From an uncultured Spirochaetota bacterium (GTDB lineage: Bacteria > Spirochaetota > Spirochaetia > SZUA-6 > CAVTHK01), in the NCBI GenBank assembly GCA_963734495.1, contig CAVTHK010000015.1, positions 75,370 through 139,369 on the forward strand: a stretch of 64,000 nucleotides of DNA. The letters are read 5' to 3'. The notes beneath the pieces were generated by a model, which was not told the origin of the DNA, did no database searches, and was given only the letters and a program-made list of their open reading frames with translations. The translations under genes and the position numbers were made by a program. Of this stretch, positions 18,175-27,778 are shown piece by piece; the stretch's first letter is position 1, and each line of letters starts with the position of its first letter.

Positions 18175-20044
18175 GGCTCTGCTTCGTCGTTCCGTTTGGC
18201 CGGCGGAAGACCCAGCAGCTCGCGGACTTCCGCGTCGTCGAGCGTCTCCCGGGACATCAGCGAGCTGGTGAGCTTGTCCATCTGCGCGCGGTGCTCCTGC
18301 AGGAGCTTCAAGGCCTTCTCGAGGCAGCCCTGGACGATCGACGTGGATCTCCGTGTCGATCTTCTGCGGCGGTCTCTTCGGAGTAGTCCTTGTGGCGCGC
18401 GATCTCCTTGCCTATGAAGATCGGCTCTTCCTTCTGGCCGTAGGCGATGGGGCCCAGCGTCTCGCTCATGCCCCACTCGCAGACCATCTTGCGGGCGATG
18501 TCCGTCGCCTGCTCGATGTCCGCCTGCGCGCCCGTGGAGGTCTGCCCGTAGACGATGCTCTCGGCGGCGTAGCCGCCCATCGCGATGGTCACGCGGTCGA
18601 GGAGCCAGGCCCGGTTGCGCGAGTAGGCGTCCGATTCCGGCAGCGAGATGGCCATGCCGAGCGCCCGGCCGTGCGGGATGATCGTGACCTTGTGCAGCGG
18701 GTCGGCGTTCTCCAGATAGTAGTGCAGCAGGGCGTGCCCGGCCTCGTGGTAGGCGGTCATCTTCTTCTCCTTGGGCGGGATGACGCGCGACTTGCGGGCG
18801 ACCCCCATCAGCACCTTGTCGCGGGCCTCCTCGAAGTCCGGCCATGTCCGACGCGTTCCTTGTTCTTGCGGCCCGCGTACAGGGCGGCCTCGTTGACCAG
18901 GTTCGCGAGGTCCGCGCCCGAGGTGCCGGCCGTGGCCCTGGCGATGCGGCTCAGGTCGACGTCGGGCCCGACGGGGATCTTGGCGGCGTGGATGCTGCAG
19001 GATCGCCTCGCGCTCCTTGACGTCCGGCATGTCGACGACGACCTGCCGGTCGAAGCGGCCCGGGCCGCAGCAGGGCCGGATCGAGGACGTCCGGGCGGTT
19101 GGTGGCGGCCAGGATGATGACGCCGTCCTTGGTGTCGAAGCCGTCCATCTCGACCAGCATCTGGTTGAGGGTCTGCTCGCGCTCGTCGTGGCCGCCGCCG
19201 TAGCCGGCGCCGCGGGTCCTGCCGACCGCGTCGAGCTCGTCGATGAACAGGATGCACGGGGCGTTCTTGCGGCCCTGCTCGAAGAGGTCGCGCACGCGGC
19301 TGGCGCCGACGCCCACGAACATCTCGACGAAGTCGGAGCCGGACATGTGGAAGAAGGGCACGTTGGCCTCGCCGGCGATCGCCTTGGCCAGGAGGGTCTT
19401 GCCGGTGCCGGGCATCCCGACGAGCAGCACTCCCTTGGGGATCTTCGCGCCGATCTTCGTGAACCTGCCGGGGTTCTTGAGGAACTCCACGACCTCCTGC
19501 AGCTCGTACTTCGCCTCTTCCTGGCCGGCCACGTCGGCAAAGGTGGATTTTCTGCCGCGGTCGAGGTACCGCTTGGCGCGGCTCTTGCCGAAGCGAGAAC
19601 GCCTTGTTGCCGCTGCCCTGGATCTGGCGGAACATGAACCAGATAAAGAAGAACCCGATCAACCACGGGAGGAACTCGAAGAACACCTTGAGCGGCGAGA
19701 CGCTTCGCGACCCGCCCTGGATGACGACTTTGTTGGTCGATCATCCGATCGATCAGGTTGCCGTCGAAGTACGGAATGACCGTGCGGAAGGAGGTCACGG
19801 TGCTCGAGCCGTCCTTGAGCTCGCCCCTGATGAGCTGGCCGTCGAGGATCTTGACCGACTGCACCTTGCCCGACTCCAGGTAGTTCAGGAAGTTGGAGTA
19901 CGGGATCTCGCGCGAGAGGTCCGTGTCCTGCAGAAAGAAGAAGAAGACGAAGAAGCCGATGAGCACCAGCAGGGACACCAGGGCGGCCCTGTTGTTGAAG
20001 TTGAACCGCGGGTTCTTCGGATCGTTACCGTCGTTGTTTGGCAC
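18171..20044 (-). CDS. ftsH: ATP-dependent zinc metalloprotease FtsH (split by indels)
   Basis: Two TM helices, [78 protein letters not shown]. Confidence 0.96.
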
Positions 20045-20046
20045 CT

Positions 20047-21438
20047 TCAGCTCCGTCTCTCCACTGCGGCCGTCGACGGTCACGAAGCCCCGTCCGGCGG
20101 CACGGCCCCTATCGGCGACATATGCACCCCATGGCAGGGCGAACACCGCGATCACCCCGTTCGCGTCCGCGACGACGCCGGCATCGTCGCGCGCCTCGAG
20201 AGGCACTCCCCACTGGCTCAGGAGCTTCTTGAGGCTCGTTGTCCCGGCTGCCGTGGGCACCCGGTCGCCTCGACGGCGGGAGCGGACAACGACCGGCGGC
20301 TGAATGCCGGCCCGGCCGATACTGATCGCTTGCGGCCGGCCGTCCTGCGCCTCCGCCCGTGCTTCCCCCGGCGGATGGGACCCCAACCGGTACGGGCCAG
20401 CCCGCTCGGCTCTTTCGACCGGCTCCGCTACCAGAGTAAAATAGCCTGTTTTGCCGGGGCAGACAATATGCCGGGTCACGAGAAACCGGTTTTTGCCCAG
20501 TTTAATGCGCACCCCGGCGCCCTGCAGGAGCCGGTCGACCGCGCGCGGGCGCTCGTGCACCAGCCGCTCGATGGAGCGATAGGACAGCCGTGCCCGCGCG
20601 GGGGCCGCGCGGTCGACGACCCGGTACAGCGACTCGGCGCGCAGCGCGGCCGGCAGCGCGTAGAAGGCATCCGCGTCGGCGGAAAAGCCTGCTGGCTCGA
20701 CCTTCCAGACGTCGCGGCGGGCAAGCTCGGCGTCGACGAGGCCCGCCAGGTCCGACATCTTCCGCGCGAGGCTGTCGAGCGCCCGCGCGTACCCGGGAAA
20801 GACCTCGCGCAGGACCGGGACGAGGCGCGCCCTGATCCCGTTGCGGAGGAAGCGCTGGTCGGCGTTGGAAGAATCCGAATGGAAGCTCTGCGCCCTCTCT
20901 GAGAGGAAGGCGACACGTCCTGCCGCGTGCAGCGCAGGAGCGGCCGGATGACCTGCCCGGCCCGTGGCGCGATGCCTGCGAGACCCTGCGGCCCCGGAAC
21001 CCTGGAAGAAGCGCATCAGCAGCGTCTCGACCTGGTCGTCGTGCGTGTGGCCGAGGGCGATGAACCCGCACCCGGCCTCGCCGGGCCGCCCGGCGAAGGC
21101 TCTCCATCCGGCGGCCGCGGGCCGCCTCCTCGAGGCTCCTGTGCGACCGCCGCGCCTCGCGCTCCAGGAGCCCGGGCTCGATCGGGAGCACGGTCAGCTT
21201 CAGGCCGCACTCTTCGGCACGCCTGTTCGGCTGCCGAGCGCTCGGCGGCGCGCTCCCCGGCGTCGCGAATGCCGTGATCGACGTATGCCGGCACGATGCT
21301 GAGTCCGTGCTCGGCCGCGAGCTCCGAGAGCGCCACCAGAAGGGCGGTCGAATCGGGGCCGCCCGAGCAGCCGACGAGGACGCGGCTGCCGCGCTGCGAC
21401 GCCCAGACCGGCCAGGGAACCTTCAACCTTGTCAGCAA
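20047..21438 (-). CDS. tilS: tRNA(Ile)-lysidine synthetase (split by indels)
   Basis: [65 protein letters not shown]. Confidence 0.9.
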
Positions 21439-22001
21439 CCCTGGTTGACTTCATTCATGACCCGTTCGAGGCCCTCGCGCGGCAGGCGCGGACAGGGCGT
21501 CGGCGGCCCGTTCGACGGCGGCCTGCGATCGCCGCCGCTTCGTCCGGGCCGGGCCGCCCGAGCACGTAAGACACGACGTCCTTCCTCGATGACGGCCGCC
21601 CGATGCCGACGACGAGTCGCATGATCTCGTCCGTGCCGGCGTGGCGTATGATCGACTCGAGCCCCTTCTGGCCGCCGGACGATCCCCGCGTGCGCAAGCG
21701 GCAGACTCCGGCCGGCAGGTCGAGGCTGTCGCAGACGACGAGCACGTCCGCCGGCGCCGCCTTTGCCGCGCGCAGCATCGAAGCCAGCACTTCGCCCGAC
21801 GCGTTCATGAAGGTCAGGGGCTTGAACAGGTGCCAGAGCTCGCCTCCGACTGCTGCGCCTGGCCAGCGCGAACCGCCGGAAGAGCGGCCGCCTCCAGCGC
21901 AGGCCGAGCCGGGAGGCCAGACGGTCGACGACCGCGAACCCGACGTTGTGCCGGGTGCCTTCGTAGCGAGGTCCGGGATTGCCCAGACCGATGACGACCA
22001 G
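21432..22001 (-). CDS. pth: Peptidyl-tRNA hydrolase (split by indels; start codon uncertain)
   Basis: [67 protein letters not shown]. Confidence 0.9.
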
Positions 22002-22004
22002 GCG

Positions 22005-22678
22005 CTACTTCTCCGCCTTCTCGGCGCTTCTCCGCGCTCCTCGCCCTCGGCGCTTCCTCGCCCTCTGCAGCGGCAGCGTCTTCGCCCTCGGCAGCCGCCT
22101 CGACGGGCGCAGCCACCACTTCGGCCTTCTTGACGAGGATCGTGCAGACGACCTGGTCGGCGAAGTGACGATGCGGACGCCCTGCATCGGGGGCAGGCTC
22201 GCGCACGTGGATCGACTGGCCGATCGTCGAGTGGGTGCATGTCGACGCTCGATGTCCTCGGGCAGGTCCTTGGGGAGACACTCGATCTCGAGGTCGTGGA
22301 CCAGGGTCTCGAGAAGGCCGCCCTCGCGCACTCCCATGGCGCTCGCCGCGCACGCGCACGGCCACGCGGGCGCGCAGCAGCGCGGCTCTGGTCGATCTCG
22401 TAGAAGTCGATGTGGGTGATCCGTCCGCTGACGATGTCTTCCTGGTAGTCCTTGACGAGGACCTCGATGGCCGACGTCGTCGGACTCGAGCTTGATGATC
22501 GTGCTCTCGGACACGGCCCTGAACTTCGATCCGAACTCGTGCTCATCGATCACGATCGGAATCGGGTCTCCGTGCGGCCGTACACGATCGAAGGGATCTT
22601 TCCGGACCGGCGGAACCGCCCCGCCGGCCCCTTGCCGCTTTCCTTGCGCACCGAGAACGCGAGAGTCTTCTGCTCCAT
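22005..22678 (-). CDS. rplY: 50S ribosomal protein L25 (Ctc-type; split by indels)
   Basis: R..SGKGPAGRFRRSGKIPSIVYG, VLVKDYQED..HIDFYE, GVREGGLLE, IECLPKDLPE. Confidence 0.9.
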
Positions 22679-22722
22679 CTCCTGCTCCTCTTGATCAGTC
22701 CCGCCGTCGTTCACGAGTAAGG

Positions 22723-22796
22723 CTGGGACGGCAGGATTCGAACCTGCGTAATGCCGGTTCCAAAGACCGGTGGCTTAACCGCTTGCCTACGTCCCA
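22723..22796 (-). tRNA. tRNA-Gln (TTG)
   Basis: TGGGACGTAGGCAAGCGGTTAAGCCACCGGTCT-TTG-GAACCGGCATTACGCAGGTTCGAATCCTGCCGTCCCAG cloverleaf. Confidence 0.95.
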
Positions 22797-22829
22797 GTGA
22801 TCTGCTGAGCGTAAGACCGAAACGGGTCA

Positions 22830-23142
22830 AGCCCCTTCGCGATCTTGCTTCTTCCACCTCTGCGAGCGGCTCCTCCGCACCCGGGGTCGCCGCCAGCTTG
22901 TCGTAGGCGGCCAGGATCTGCCGCTGTATCTGGTTGCGAAACTCCGAGTTGATCGGGTGCGCTATGTCCTTGTACTCCCCCGTCTGGGTCTTCCGACTCG
23001 GCATCGCAACGAACGTACCCGACTGCCCCTTGATGATCTTGAGGTTGTGCACGGCGAAGCAGTCATCGAACGTCAGCGTAACATAAGCCTTGAGCTTGCC
23101 CTCGCTCTCGACTCTGCGGATGCGGATGTCGGTGATGTCCAC
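22830..23142 (-). CDS. spoVG: SpoVG nucleic-acid-binding protein (stop apparently lost; 3' end approximate)
   Basis: ITDIRIRRV..GKLKAYVTLTFDDCFAVHNLKII.G..GTFVAMPSRK..GEYKDIAHPINSEFR; SD-like GAGGGGGTG before GTG. Confidence 0.93.
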
Positions 23143-23169
23143 AGCGGCACCCCCTCGTGCGTGCATCAG

Positions 23170-23198
23170 ATTCTACAATGGGTCCATACCCAATGCAA
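23170..23198 (-). promoter_or_regulatory. spoVG operon proximal promoter
   Basis: Minus strand TTGCAT-N17-TAGAAT. Confidence 0.65.
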
Positions 23199-23229
23199 GC
23201 AAGAGTCGAGCCGCTTTGTCAGGTTGCGC

Positions 23230-23257
23230 ATTATAACGGTTCACCCGCGAGTGTCAA
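23230..23257 (-). promoter_or_regulatory. spoVG operon distal promoter
   Basis: Minus strand TTGACA-N16-TATAAT with GC-rich discriminator GCGCAACC. Confidence 0.75.
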
Positions 23258-23647
23258 GGCTCGCCGCAGCGGAACGGCGGGAGGCGACGCCCCGCCAGGC
23301 GCCCGACGTCCGGCGGGGCTGCCGGAACGCCATGGCGACGCCGGCACTTCGCCGCGGCCGGCGCGGTTCCCCGGGGCGGCCGGCGCGGCTCGCCCGGGCG
23401 CCGCCCGGCGCCGCGCCGGGCTGGGAGCGTGCAGCGTGGCAAGCGGTCGGAAGCTCGCGTGGCGGCGCGACGGCGCCGCCGGGAGGCCGCTGCCGCGATC
23501 CCGGCCGGCCGTCGTTTCGAGCGGCGGCGAGGCCGCTGCAGGCGCGTTCGGGCTCCCCTCGAATCGAGCACCCGGCGGCCCTGGCGCTCCGGCCGGACGC
23601 CACGCCAGGCGCCCCGGGTTGCCGCCAACTCCCTCTGCGAAAGCCTG

Positions 23648-23699
23648 TTGACATTTCGAAGAGGAAGCACATAGATTGGTCGATAGAAAAGCAAGGAGG
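23648..23699 (+). promoter_or_regulatory. Promoter and SD of the acidic protein gene
   Basis: TTGACA-N18-TAGATT (23648-23677); AAGGAGG at 23693-23699. Confidence 0.55.
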
Positions 23700-23713
23700 C
23701 CAGGAAAGCGATC

Positions 23714-24124
23714 ATGAGCTCACTGAACGCGGGCGACGACTGCTATCTTCTGATGGGCTCCGACGACGACGCGGGTGACCTCGAGGACGACGAGCTCTTC
23801 GACGACGACTTCGACGACTACGAAGAGGACTTAGACGACGACGACTACGACGAGGACGACCTCGAAGACGAGGAGTCCGAGGACTACGACAGCAGCGGCG
23901 AAGAAGCTCTCGAAGACGGGGACTACGAAGAGGACGAGGACGACGACGAGGAGGAGGAAGAAGAAGAGGAGGAGGACGAAGAGGAAGAAGACGAGGATCA
24001 TGACGAAGACGAAGAGGATGAAGACGACGACGAAGAAGAGGACGCCGAGGAGGACGAGGACTTCTTCGACGAGGACTACGACTCCGACGACGACGATACC
24101 GACGAGGCTGACGACGAAGAGTAG
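23714..24124 (+). CDS. Extremely acidic low-complexity protein, 136 aa, function unknown
   Basis: 95 of 136 residues D/E by hand count, no K or R; mixed synonymous GAC/GAG/GAA/GAT codons; upstream promoter and SD. Confidence 0.75.
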
Positions 24125-24472
24125 ACCTCTTCGGCCATGAACCAGAGCTTCTCCAGCTCGTAGAAGTCGCGCTTCTCGCGCTCCATGAGGTGGACGACAA
24201 AGCTGCCGCAGTCGACCAGCACCCAGCCCGATTCCGCGGCGTTGCGTGCCTCGGTTGAGCGACTTACCGATTTTTCCTTCAGACAGGTCCAGGACGTAGT
24301 CGAGAAGGCTGCGCAGGTGGGTCTCGCTGTGCGCCGTGGCGATCACGAAGTAATCGGTCCAGCTGCAGACCCCGCCCACGTGGAGGACCACCGTGTCCTC
24401 GGCCTGTGCTCTTCGAGCACTGTTGCCGCTGTCGAGGGCCGTGGCGCGGCTACTGTTTGACGTATCGTCCAT
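24076..24472 (-). CDS. rsfS: Ribosome silencing factor (Iojap) (split by indels)
   Basis: [42 protein letters not shown]. Confidence 0.92.
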
Positions 24473-25648
24473 CGAAATCCCTTCCCAGGATCACGGTCAC
24501 GTCCGCGTCGCTGGAGGCGCTCGGCTGGGCGTGCATCCGCTCGCAGTGGATGATCTCGGCCACGCGCTTCGCCGCATCGGGGTTGCCGCGGCGGTCGAGC
24601 ACGACGGTGTTCACGTACTTGTCGTTGTCGGCGTTGCCGAACGAGACGACCTCGAAACCGAAGCTCTCGTAGAGCGCCTTGGTGCGGCGCGCGAGACCGT
24701 CCAGGGCGGTCCCGTTGAGGATCTCGATGCGGACCGTGACCGACTCGGTCGCTCGCTTCGCTCTGGTTCCTGATGGCCTGGCTCATCTGGCTCACCGTCT
24801 CGCGGATCAGGGCGCCCTCGTAATGGGGCAGCAGCACTTCGCCGTTGACGCCTTCGACCTGCCGCAGGCTGCCCATCACTCTCTGGAACACCAGGTGGTC
24901 GGGGTCGAGGCGGCCGAGCTCGCGGACCAGGGAGTCCACGCCGCGTGAGCTGATGTTCGTCTGGAGAATAGCTCTTGAACACGGCGTTCGCCGCGGGGTT
25001 GCCGAGGAGATCCTGGGTCGCCGGCTGGCCGATCCGTTCTGAGAAGCGACTGCAGGAACTTCTGCTGGCGCCCGACCCTCTCCATTTCCTCCTCGATCGG
25101 GTCCTCGTAGCTCGAGGTACTGGAGCGCCTTGTCGCCGTCCAGGGTCACGCTGCCGGAAGGCAGGAGCGTCGCGGTTGCCCCCCGACTCGCTGTCGATGG
25201 GGTTGGAGATGAACAGGTCTCGATGCCGCCGAGCAGGTCGACGATGTTCGCGATCGTGGTCGTACGAGCAGCACGACATGGAACGGGATCGGCGCCTTGA
25301 CGAGCTGCTCCGTCTTCCTGCGCAGCGGCGTCGAGGTTGCCGGCGGCGTAGAGCACCGAGATGCGGTCGAAGCGGCCGAGCTCGGCGATCTGCAGGCCCA
25401 GGTTGGCCGGGATGAAGAAGAGCCCGCCGCGCTTGGTGTGTGGGCTCGTACAGCAGCAGCTCCATGTGATCGAGCGCGTCCGCCGCGGGCGATGATGAAC
25501 AGGACGTTGACGGGAGAGCCCGTGGGCCACCATCTCCGTCAGGGCGTCGGTGCGGAACTGGAGAAAACCGTAGACACCGGCCGCGACGACGACCAGAACG
25601 ATCAGGACGAGCATCAGAGATGCTCTTGTCCGGCTTGCGCGTCCTCAC
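24450..25648 (-). CDS. LCP-family protein with C-terminal LytR_C domain (split by indels)
   Basis: N-terminal TM, IVDLLGGI, SVTLDGDKALQYL, RQQKF, IEILNGT..GLA, GFEV..GNA, DVTVILGRDF. Confidence 0.8.
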
Positions 25649-26242
25649 CCGAGCTCCCTCCCGAGCCCCCTCCTGAGCTCCTCGATCATCAGCCGGGTCT
25701 CCGCGAGCGGCTCGAACCCTTTCAGCCGATAGTACGCGGCGAGCTCCTCGGCCACCAGCAGGACGATCTCGTCCAGACTCCCCGCGGGCGAGCGCCCGGC
25801 GCCGCAGCTTCCGCGCGAAGCGGCGCCCGGCTCCAGCAGATCGGCAGCATAGACCGCCTTGGCCACGTCGTCGAGCGCCGGGCCTCCCGCGATGTGCCAG
25901 CGGACGGCCCGCAGGACGACCGGATCGTCGACGCCGTTTTCGCGCAGCAGGGCTTCGGCCGCCGCGCCGTGCATGAGGACGGGACGCGCGAGCGCGGCGG
26001 GGTCGGGCTCGCCGCCGCAGCGGGCGGCGAGGGCCGCGAGCCGCTCCGCGCGGCAGCTCCCGCGCCACGTCGTGGCCGAGCCCTGCGACGAAGGACCGCT
26101 GCGGATCGAAGCCGAAGCGCTCGGCCAGCTCCCGCGCGCAGCGGGCCACCCGGAGGGAGTGACGCCGGCGCTTCGGAGAGAGGCGCCCCAGCAGGAGGCG
26201 GATCGCGCGGACTTCAGCCGACGTACAGCCCGTGACGCGCAA
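25645..26242 (-). CDS. yqeK: YqeK-like HD hydrolase (Ap4A hydrolase family; split by indels)
   Basis: LSPKRRRHSLRVA, AGLGHDVARE, LMHGAAA, AVRWH, VYAADLLEPG; follows nadD; GGAGG SD before TTG. Confidence 0.85.
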
Positions 26243-26789
26243 TGTACCTCCACACCCGCTCCGGAAGGAGGAAACGAACGGTCTCGCGCCTCGCCAGCCG
26301 TTCGCGGATGACGGTCGAGGAAACCGGCAGGATCGTCGTTGCCAAGGTACCGGTGGGGATACGCGAAGTCCAGGGCCTCGGCGCTCGCTCCTCCGGCACA
26401 CCAGGAGGTCGACGCGTTCGACGAGCTCCTCCACCCTCTTCCAGCGGGAGAAGCCCGCGAGCAGGTCGTCGCCGATGATGAGCCCGAGCCGGCCCTGCGG
26501 GCGGTACCTGCGCTCTATGTCCGCGACCGTCTCGATCATGTAGGACACGCCGCCCCTGCGGATCTCGCAGGGGTCGCACACGAACGCCGGGAGGCCCGCG
26601 AGCGCCATCCTCACCATGCGCAGGCGCTCTTCGGGGCCGACGGTGCCCGGCACGTCCTTGTGCGCGGGTACGTTCGACGGCACGAAGACGATGCGATCGT
26701 AGCCGCACGTCGTCCGCGCGACCTCCGCCGCGAAGAGATGTCCGTAGTGGATCGGGTTGAACGTGCCGCCCGAGGATCGCAGCCTTCAT
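26214..26789 (-). CDS. nadD: Nicotinate-nucleotide adenylyltransferase (split by indels)
   Basis: [51 protein letters not shown]. Confidence 0.93.
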
Positions 26790-27778
26790 GCGGCGGTCTA
26801 TCACCTCCACGAGCGCGCGCACCAGGTCCTCGAGCCCACGTGCCGGTGAGCGCCGAGATCCCCACGACGCGCTCGCCCGGGAGCGAGCGCGCGAGCTCCT
26901 CGAGACGCGCCGGCGCCGCCGGCGTGTCCAGCTTGTTGCCGACGATGATGCCGCCGCCGCCCCGCCATCTCCGGCGAAAAGGCCCGGACCTCGGCCTCGA
27001 GGGTCGGCACGGCCCGCAGGGCGCCTTCATCCTCGAGGTCCACGATGTAGGCGAGCACCGCCGTCCGCGCCACGTGCCTGAGGAACTGGTTCCCCATGCC
27101 GGCGCCGCTTCGAGGCGCCCTCGATCAGGCCCGGGAATGTCGGCGAGCACGATGTCCAGGTCGCCGATGCGGAGGACGCCCAGGTGAGGGATCAACGTGG
27201 TGAAGGGGTACGCGGCCACCTTGGGCCTCGCCCGCGTGAGCCGCGAGATCAGCGTCGACTTGCCGGCGTTCGGCAGCCCCACCAGCCCGACGTCCGCGAT
27301 GAGGCTCAGCTCGACCCGCAGCTTGCGCGCGGCGCCCGGCGTCCCCGGCTGCGCGAAGCGCGGCGTCCTGTGCGTCGCAGTGGCGAAGTGCGTGTTGCCC
27401 TTGCCTCCCCGTCCGCCCTGGAGGAACAGCCAGCGCTCTCCGCTCTGCGACAGATCCCGCAGCAGCTCGCCGCTCCGGCCGTCCCTGATCGAGCGTGCCC
27501 GGCGGCACCGGGACTTCGACGTCCGCGCCGCGATGTCCCGTGCGATTCTGCGAGCCCCCGCGCGCGCCGTTTTCGGCGTGGAACGACCTGCGGTTGCGGA
27601 GGTGAGCGAGTGTCTTGAGATTGGACCTTACGACAAAGAAGAGGTCGCCGCCGTCGCCGCCGTCGCCGCCGTCGGGGCCGCCGCGCGGAACGTACTTCTC
27701 GCGACGGAACGACACGGCCCCGGCGCCGCCGTTGCCCGAAGCGACCTCGATCAGCGCCTCGTCGACGAACCCGTGCAC
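26786..27778 (-). CDS. obgE: GTPase Obg/CgtA (split by indels)
   Basis: [70 protein letters not shown]. Confidence 0.95.

Follow-up and report, generated by a model that had tools for sequence, protein, structure and literature searches.

A conserved gene of Spirochaetota, TP_0370 of Treponema pallidum included, that is predicted to encode a disordered polyanionic protein

We analyzed a 64,000-nucleotide stretch of DNA from an uncultured Spirochaetota bacterium (contig CAVTHK010000015.1 of assembly GCA_963734495.1, positions 75,370 to 139,369 of the forward strand), which we call the window, and in particular a small open reading frame (ORF) on its plus strand. The ORF (23714..24124) runs from ATG to TAG and would encode 136 amino acids. 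A first-pass annotation, made from the sequence alone, had described the product as extremely acidic, and a recount agrees: 52 Asp and 43 Glu residues (D/E) account for 95 of the 136 positions, there is no Lys or Arg, and the rest includes 8 Leu, 6 Tyr, and 4 Phe. When we considered every stop-to-stop ORF of at least 50 amino acids in the six-frame translation of the whole genome (G000; 5.38 Mb in 18 contigs, GC content 0.68, 83% complete), just 1 of 51,131 had at least 24 D/E in 40 residues, and it was this one, with 38 of 40. The ORF had also been described as something other than a simple microsatellite, which is what we found. Its codons are mixed (49 GAC, 25 GAG, 18 GAA, and 3 GAT), and Tandem Repeats Finder (TRF) reported only degenerate periodicity, with 64% matches for period 3 and, over 23921..24061, 6.7 copies of period 21 with 75% matches. 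The ORF is not a clean microsatellite, although the run at its center resembles an expansion that has since decayed.

The acidic ORF is the sole plus-strand gene between two minus-strand blocks, as had been proposed and as Pfam and ARAGORN bear out. To its left lies ftsH-tilS-pth-rplY (bL25/Ctc)-tRNA-Gln-spoVG, and to its right lies rsfS-lytR (LytR_cpsA_psr/LytR_C)-nadD/HD-obg (an Obg-type GTPase; assignments from Pfam). The proposed promoter and Shine-Dalgarno sequence are there as well. A promoter scan of 2.1 kb found two sites, where 0.2 are expected from shuffled sequences, and one of the two precedes the acidic ORF (Table 1). The Shine-Dalgarno-like AAGGAGG can be read directly from the sequence, and it is identical base for base in G001, a relative from the same genus that we used as the closest comparison.

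The first-pass annotation had expected related genomes to have an acidic ORF in the same interval, between rsfS and spoVG, and most of them do. We located SpoVG in 30 of 41 genomes from the order to which the window belongs (G000 included), which gives 29 loci from relatives. At 16 of these 29, a D/E-rich ORF lies no more than 1.5 kb from spoVG and diverges from it; extending 12 further loci to about 5 kb (the locus from G022 was left out) added 7, for a total of 23 relatives. Many Treponema and Spirochaetales genomes have it too: in public genomes, an acidic ORF is present at 18 of 51 spoVG loci with spirochaete labels (Treponema, Spirochaetaceae, and Treponematales among them; many of the contigs are short) and at none of 29 spoVG loci that are labelled with other phyla. 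According to Pfam, the order of genes is LytR-rsfS, the acidic ORF convergent with these, and then a divergent ispE (GHMP kinase)-spoVG-rplY...tilS. Of 8 annotated loci, 6 have rsfS as the convergent neighbor and 6 have ispE between the acidic ORF and spoVG; in the window's genus, ispE is missing from the interval. We did not find an acidic ORF within 1.5 kb of spoVG in five genomes of families f12 and f13, nor within 1.5 kb of rsfS in four genomes of f24 and one of f29, which does not mean that those genomes lack it.

The promoter is conserved along with the position, which supports the earlier view of a stand-alone gene with its own promoter. In all 35 related loci that we compared, the acidic ORF is preceded by TTGACA and, 17 to 19 nt after it, a -10-like hexamer. 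The hexamer is TAGATT in 24 of them, and in the relatives an A-rich tract usually precedes the promoter. The same arrangement occurs in 71 of 74 further loci, with a spacer of 18 nt in 63.

We refer to these proteins as the spirochaetal TP_0370-like acidic proteins, after the member from Treponema pallidum (below). The family is defined in this analysis and has no Pfam or NCBIfam model. Its architecture is a stand-alone ORF of 72 to 160 amino acids, with a short nonacidic leader and then a tract that is at least 70% D/E, with F, Y, and L. The 54 distinct members span that entire range of lengths (median, 116), and their leaders have 1 to 70 residues (median, 21). The composition of the tracts is D 0.536, E 0.199, F 0.094, Y 0.068, and L 0.028, and 33 of the 54 are free of K and R. 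The window protein shares this architecture, with a 16-residue leader and 18 F, Y, or L residues besides its 95 D/E. A motif, (D/E)DFDDY(E/G)(D/E)D, recurs near the start of the tract, and the window protein has it at residues 30-40; D34 is the sole invariant column in an alignment of 14 members (alignment A1). A second motif, (L/I/V)(D/E)Y(D/E/N)DFD(E/Q), recurs at the C terminus, directly before the stop. The window gene also has the promoter of the family (TTGACA-18-TAGATT) and its position, divergent from spoVG-rplY and convergent with rsfS, with ispE missing. Judged from these features of the sequence, the window ORF appears to group with TP_0370 on four of five nonstatistical features: architecture, N-proximal motif, promoter, and position.

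The C-terminal motif let us look beyond the spoVG loci. A scan of the genomes of 185,579 species with a DNA pattern for DYDDFDE followed by a stop gave at least 120 loci, and in 112 of the matches listed, the pattern closes an ORF that is 60% D/E or more. Gracilinema caldarium is among the species whose genomes have the gene. Eighty of the loci had titles; 74 of these are family members, of which 72 carry the names of spirochaetes and 2 are titled "bacterium," and the other 6 are ordinary chance matches in other phyla. A degenerate pattern for the N-proximal motif matched 137 of 401 genomes of the phylum, but its reversed control also matched many genomes with low GC content, so we used this pattern only to fetch loci and not for counts. 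Acidic copies are also present in G055 (a 2.76-Mb genome), where the convergent neighbors are TPR or other genes, and in G142 (1.14 Mb), whose copy is identical to TP_0370 letter for letter. In the genomes of family f29 (GC content 0.26-0.29; L117-L137), the protein is almost poly-Asp (for example, ...LNGYFAKFDDDFDDDDYDDYDD...DDYDDDFDE), but Y or F recurs every few residues and bulky residues are at most 6-9 apart. There, the acidic gene lies between pgk (or a Fe-ADH gene) and an unknown ORF of 172-176 amino acids plus argJ, all on one strand, and a pattern search of these loci found no TTGACA promoter.

Is the acidic ORF a protein gene at all? It could instead be a by-product of a GA-rich repeat or of an antisense gene, such as the tail of rsfS; it could be an assembly error; or it could be a functional RNA, such as a GGA-rich sponge for CsrA. 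The G000 assembly is full of frameshifts, the mRNA of the window ORF is 68% purine with 22 GGA motifs in 411 nt, and the protein went undetected in the T. pallidum proteome data cited below. Also, of 33 tracts, 24 are open in one antisense frame, 1 in another, and 27 in the remaining one. Openness alone is undecisive, for the acidic frame as much as for the others, because the antisense of GAN codons seldom holds stops. However, the antisense frame that would encode poly-Ser is closed in 32 of 33 tracts because conserved D-Y codon pairs interrupt it. Furthermore, across 35 loci with flanking GC content of 0.41-0.69, the GC content of codon position 3 tracks that of the flanks (r = 0.82), while positions 1 and 2 are fixed at 0.81 and 0.06. 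The D/E frame alone keeps its residue class across that range; its composition is invariant over genomes with GC contents of 0.26-0.69, where the antisense frames would change theirs. Given the closed Ser frame and this behavior with GC content, we ruled out the antisense poly-Ser, V/L/F/I, and R/P/L/H frames as the coding frame. Substitutions pile up at the third codon position: there are 12, 7, and 45 at positions 1, 2, and 3 between G000 and G001, and 7, 6, and 49 in another close pair. The stop codon directly follows the conserved C-terminal motif, which ends in DFDE.

An assembly error does not account for the ORF either. It is intact in both G000 and G001, with the same start, stop, Shine-Dalgarno sequence, and promoter; the gaps between the two are in frame (15, 18, and 6 nt), and the neighboring frames in G001 are unbroken. 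An independent contig of metagenome DNA spans 23623..23918 with five differences and no gaps, and another spans 24058..24236. As for the CsrA sponge, the density of GGA varies 16-fold across orthologues, from 8.0 to 0.5 per 100 nt. GGA richness is thus a by-product of codon choice and not a conserved RNA feature, and we ruled out the sponge as the function of the family. Altogether, it is very improbable that the acidic ORF is not a protein gene; the comparisons point, with little room for doubt, to a real and conserved protein-coding gene whose family is spread through Spirochaetota.

In T. pallidum, the orthologue is the hypothetical protein TP_0370 (TPANIC_0370; for example, AEZ57493.1), which is the sole annotated member of the family that we found. 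The gene had been described as unannotated. This is not true of T. pallidum, but it does hold for the window ORF and for 17 other orthologues, none of which (with the starts that we chose) has an entry in a collection of 15 billion proteins. Like the window ORF, TP_0370 is a small ORF that ends in an acidic-aromatic tract (...SDDYEDDFEDSDF...EDNDLDFDE), has TTGACA and a -10-like box upstream, and diverges from its neighbors, which are ispE-tRNA-rplY-tilS. Unlike the window ORF, it is convergent with a bamD-like gene instead of rsfS, and its tract has 52 residues instead of 120. We found no match to SpoVG at the TP_0370 locus. TP_0370 has been annotated at 93 to 153 amino acids, and the predicted promoter contains these starts or lies downstream of them; the annotated coding sequence of 417 nt contains the TTGACA box. 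An ATG with a GAGG-like site would give a product of 72 amino acids that starts with MNERNK (L143:2951-3583, from G142). We infer that this shorter product fits TP_0370 better than the annotated starts do and that the annotated coding sequence begins upstream of the real promoter. If so, the gene may have been called a "pseudogene" in other subspecies on account of noncoding upstream sequence alone.

The lack of a transcript had been proposed as grounds for rejecting the gene, but the T. pallidum orthologue has been reported to be transcribed on its coding strand. In the supplementary tables of a study with strand-specific RNA-seq (PMC12223175), TPANIC_0370 is listed with "evidence of transcription: Yes" (S4 Table), and its mean coverage is 70.7 on its own strand and 9.05 on the other (S6 Table). 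Coverage is 0 in the first quartile, 28 in the middle, and 112 in the third quartile; the value of 0 fits an annotated coding sequence that starts upstream of the real promoter. The same table gives coverages of 315 and 9.5 for the two strands of the 67-nt 3' flank, a mean of 64 for antisense bamD, and 853 for the neighboring ispE. For G000 itself, contigs from a metatranscriptome (X18 and X20) cover only spoVG (22951..23180); they match the acidic ORF only in low-complexity pieces of 33 nt and make no statement about its expression either way. In three genome papers, TP0370 is mentioned only in lists of pseudogenes or of strain-variable genes, and one spreadsheet from the supplement of PMC8525777 has no entry for it. 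Our search of the literature did not find a functional study of a TP_0370-like family.

The family seems to be invisible to most similarity searches. Pfam gave no families for the window protein (E values up to 1) and only chance-level matches for 13 other members with E values up to 10 (E > 1, in one member), and NCBIfam gave none for the 14 members of A1. We scored 8,000 homologue candidates that share words with the window protein, none of which reached an E value of 0.001 or less, and phmmer against 1.84 billion representative sequences gave no matches. Searching the 41 relatives with the single protein found G001 (E = 3.3e-16) and no other; the remaining 39 were silent, though 22 of them have the syntenic gene. 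The profile of A1 gave no matches in 301 genomes of the phylum, but this is uninformative since it missed G000 itself. Correction for composition removes the signal of similarity. The blanks are due to composition filters and not to absence of the gene. The ESM Atlas does not contain the window protein. When we used TP_0370 as the query, the best clusters (0.88) were labelled "hypothetical protein" and came from Gemmatimonadota and Spirochaetota, which we take as a lead and nothing more. AlphaFold2, run on A1, gave a mean pLDDT of 57.7, a pTM of 0.12, and a single helical turn of three residues. This prediction is consistent with a product that is an intrinsically disordered polyanion.

Table 1. 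Features of the acidic gene and its surroundings in the window (CDS, coding sequence)
Feature	Position	Strand	Basis
Sigma-70-type promoter, TTGACA (23648-23653)-18-TAGATT (23672-23677)	23648..23677	+	Promoter scan
Shine-Dalgarno-like AAGGAGG, 14 nt before ATG; second AGGA at 23702-23705	23693..23699	+	Read directly
Polyanionic protein CDS, 136 aa plus TAG stop	23714..24124	+	Read from sequence; G001 orthologue has 123 aa
Nonacidic leader, 16 aa, ends in bulky patch CYLLM	23714..23761	+	Translation
Acidic tract, 120 codons, punctuated by F/Y/L	23762..24121	+	Translation
Central D/E run without bulky residues, degenerate 21-nt periodicity	23921..24061	+	TRF; indels between G000 and G001 fall here
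Sequence (49 nt) shared by the acidic CDS and convergent rsfS at their 3' ends	24076..24124	.	rsfS C-terminal frame 24222..24076 (-), Pfam RsfS 72-98
rsfS, split over two frames in the G000 assembly	24076..24472	-	Pfam RsfS positions 7-59 and 72-98
Spacer between the two divergent promoters, 390 nt, 82% GC	23258..23647	.	Unique in genome
Perfect consensus promoter TTGACA-16-TATAAT, faces spoVG	23230..23257	-	Promoter scan
spoVG ORF, divergent, 151 aa	22711..23166	-	Pfam SpoVG, 3.7e-37, residues 10-90

Some other features of the locus may be noted. The spacer between the two promoters is not conserved in G001, most relatives have ispE at that position, and Rfam gave no match within it. The spoVG frame runs without a stop through tRNA-Gln(ttg) at 22721..22796 on the minus strand; in G001, SpoVG stops before the tRNA. 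Frameshifts occur throughout the minus-strand genes at 18308..27282: ftsH and tilS form one ORF of 902 amino acids with out-of-frame stretches, and pth, rplY, lytR, and nadD match Pfam in pieces only. In G001, the frames of rsfS, spoVG, rplY, and pth are unbroken, and rsfS is a single intact stop-to-stop frame of 135 amino acids. The G000 assembly is thus rich in indels, and the frameshifts probably explain its completeness of 83%. In the window's genus, RsfS carries a Ser-rich C-terminal tail (24076..24140 on the minus strand; L002:2536-2600 in G001) because the tail is an antisense reading of the last codons of the acidic gene. The opposite strands of the same 37-49 nt thus encode two proteins, the tail of RsfS and the C terminus of the acidic protein. 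Finally, in relatives with low GC content, bL25/Ctc has a Glu-rich C-terminal tail of its own (L011:754-1377, L166:5975-6592, L168, and L169).

How could such a protein be made? According to a preprint by Chadani et al. (bioRxiv 10.1101/2021.02.02.429294), nascent chains rich in D/E destabilize the ribosome of E. coli and abort translation, and this is counteracted by about 30 preceding residues that fill the tunnel or by bulky residues just before the tract. ABCF factors are also reported to relieve the abortion of translation at D/E tracts in E. coli. The family seems to have both kinds of safeguard. A bulky patch lies right before the tract, CYLLM in the window protein and LxLxPV-like in Treponema, and across the 54 members, the spacing of bulky residues peaks at 4. 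In 26 of the 54 members, the longest run without a bulky residue ranks among the shortest 5% from shuffles, although related genomes are not independent. The short runs suggest selection for finishing translation, in which case the full-length product would matter. We propose that the leader, the bulky patch, and the bulky residues at about every fourth position allow ribosomes to traverse the tract, which without them would be expected to cause intrinsic ribosome destabilization (IRD).

Alternatively, it might be the act of translating about 100 destabilizing codons that matters, with completion or abortion reporting the status of the ribosome or of Mg2+; as part of this, transcription past the stop would be antisense to the convergent neighbor (rsfS in the window). 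The divergent operon contains pth, whose product recycles dropped peptidyl-tRNA. The coding sequence and the 3' end of rsfS have 49 nt in common in the window and 37 nt in G001, and the abortion at D/E tracts and its relief by ABCF factors, as reported for E. coli, count in favor of a sensor. In the T. pallidum RNA-seq tables, coverage of the minus strand does not end at the stop: it is 315 beyond it and averages 64 antisense to bamD. However, the convergent neighbor varies: it is mostly rsfS, but it is a bamD-like gene in T. pallidum and a TPR or other gene in G055, and the flanking genes in f29 are co-directional. Also, the leader and bulky residues look as if they were selected to complete translation and not to abort it, and a pure sensor would not need conserved amino acid motifs at the very C terminus. 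We consider a sensor of this kind improbable.

We put slightly lower odds still on a variant in which both outcomes have a role, as a gauge of ribosome robustness. Completion would depend on Mg2+ and on ribosome-stabilizing factors, and the choice between a full-length polyanion and an aborted peptidyl-tRNA, with an untranslated antisense transcript that extends into rsfS, would act back on the silencing of ribosomes. If true, this would account for the lasting position of the gene, which throughout the phylum has remained between rsfS on one side and the spoVG-rplY-pth operon on the other.

We favor instead an explanation in which the finished protein works by its charge. It might be a nucleic acid-like decoy or chaperone for cationic proteins that bind nucleic acids, such as HU-like or ribosomal proteins, and the C-terminal acidic-aromatic motif, (L/I/V)(D/E)Y(D/N)DFDE, might be a docking peptide. 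G000 encodes an HU-like protein at L177:1477-1779. The decoy or chaperone is the least certain step. It is proposed by analogy with DNA mimics that target HU and with acidic disordered proteins of the DSS1 type, and taken by itself it is a tentative idea that we would expect to be wrong more often than right. The first-pass annotation had named SpoVG among the possible clients, but it is unlikely to be an obligate partner, because TP_0370 lies beside ispE-rplY with no match to SpoVG and the f29 copies lie between pgk and argJ.

A polyanion could also act by charge with no specific protein partner, as a buffer or store that reversibly binds Mg2+, Ca2+, or polyamines. About 74% of the side chains in the tracts across the family are carboxylates, 33 of 54 tracts have no K or R at all, AlphaFold2 predicts no fold, and a conserved promoter whose -35 box matches the consensus would suit a product made in abundance. 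The translation of acidic tracts depends on Mg2+, which would fit as well. On the other hand, a pure chelator would need neither the conserved C-terminal motif nor conserved positions for F and Y, such as those in DDFDDYEDD. A single copy per genome would need very high expression to matter next to ribosomes and nucleotides, and the coverage reported for T. pallidum is moderate (70.7, versus 853 for the adjoining ispE). A cation buffer therefore seems unlikely, though less so than a sensor.

Several points weigh against the explanation that we favor. The window protein, from which this analysis started, fits the anatomy of the family least well. Its run of 45 residues without a bulky residue is longer than in 98.5% of shuffles, which makes it one of 4 of the 54 members beyond 95%. 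This run coincides with the degenerate 21-nt repeat and looks like a recent expansion; it is probably specific to the lineage. The window protein also lacks the canonical C-terminal motif: it has a related FDEDY and then an extra acidic tail, which overlaps rsfS, and the G001 protein, which ends in FFDEDYEDDETEDDEDEE, lacks the motif too. More generally, membership in the family rests on composition, motifs, promoter, and synteny rather than on alignment statistics, and the related genomes that we counted are not independent observations. Low-complexity sequences may have converged in the most distant set, the f29 genomes, whose gene is at another locus. Two antisense frames are open in most tracts, as described above. 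Lastly, a supplementary table from a T. pallidum proteome paper (PMC11077495) has four columns for TPANIC_0370, each of which reads ND; this is weak evidence, as it would be expected for an acidic tract without tryptic sites, but it is still a negative. Taking these points together with the conservation of the gene, we give the favored explanation as a whole (a conserved gene, a disordered polyanion, an anatomy that aids translation, and action by charge) a probability of roughly 45%.

A gene that is widely conserved in Spirochaetota, including the agent of syphilis, has been largely overlooked, because tools for homology discard low-complexity sequence, the protein has almost no tryptic sites, and the genome papers list the T. 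pallidum copy as a pseudogene or as variable between strains. It is a natural test case for how ribosomes deal with long acidic tracts, as its leader and its spaced bulky residues match two counter-measures from E. coli. Identifying what the protein binds could uncover a level of homeostasis, of the nucleoid, the ribosome, or ions, that is specific to spirochaetes. The product would also be a rare example of a stand-alone polyanionic disordered protein from bacteria; the best-known examples are eukaryotic (prothymosin and DSS1) or are tails of larger proteins.

Among such tails, the closest in appearance is that of the delta subunit of RNA polymerase (RpoE) from Firmicutes. Delta has a folded N-terminal domain of the delta/HARE-HTH type and a long, disordered, D/E-rich tail that is thought to mimic nucleic acid. 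The acidic tract in the window is likewise a long and apparently disordered D/E-rich sequence from a bacterium, but instead of a folded domain, the window protein has a leader of 16 residues; it has no predicted structure and no match in Pfam, and about 16% of the tract is aromatic. The eukaryotic proteins DSS1/Sem1, CSNAP, and prothymosin-alpha are, like the window protein, stand-alone, highly acidic, and disordered. They have about 60-110 amino acids, and DSS1 has aromatic residues set in acidic patches. The window protein differs from them in being bacterial and much more acidic, with no detectable relationship in sequence: the Pfam models for prothymosin and DSS1-Sem1 do not match it with E values up to 1 or 13 other members with E values up to 10, which is a weak test given HMMER's composition filter. 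DSS1 and CSNAP have been described as small acidic intrinsically disordered proteins (PMC8442969).

In bacteria, the small, acidic, cytoplasmic proteins DMP12, DMP19, and MsyB are reported to target HU in competition with DNA. They are folded, and their surface charge imitates DNA, whereas AlphaFold2 predicts no fold for the members of A1. The leader peptides that act by IRD, such as MgtL, resemble the window ORF in that acidic codons are reported to destabilize the translating ribosome. However, MgtL is very short and lies upstream of, and co-directional with, the gene that it regulates. The window ORF has 136 codons and is followed by the convergent rsfS, with no plus-strand gene before that, and its features should suppress abortion. 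The window ORF does not appear to belong to the delta, prothymosin, or DSS1 families or to the folded DNA mimics, although its product may act like them. If the analogy holds, the acidic, disordered mimic or chaperone would in this case be a stand-alone protein that is conserved widely within one bacterial phylum.

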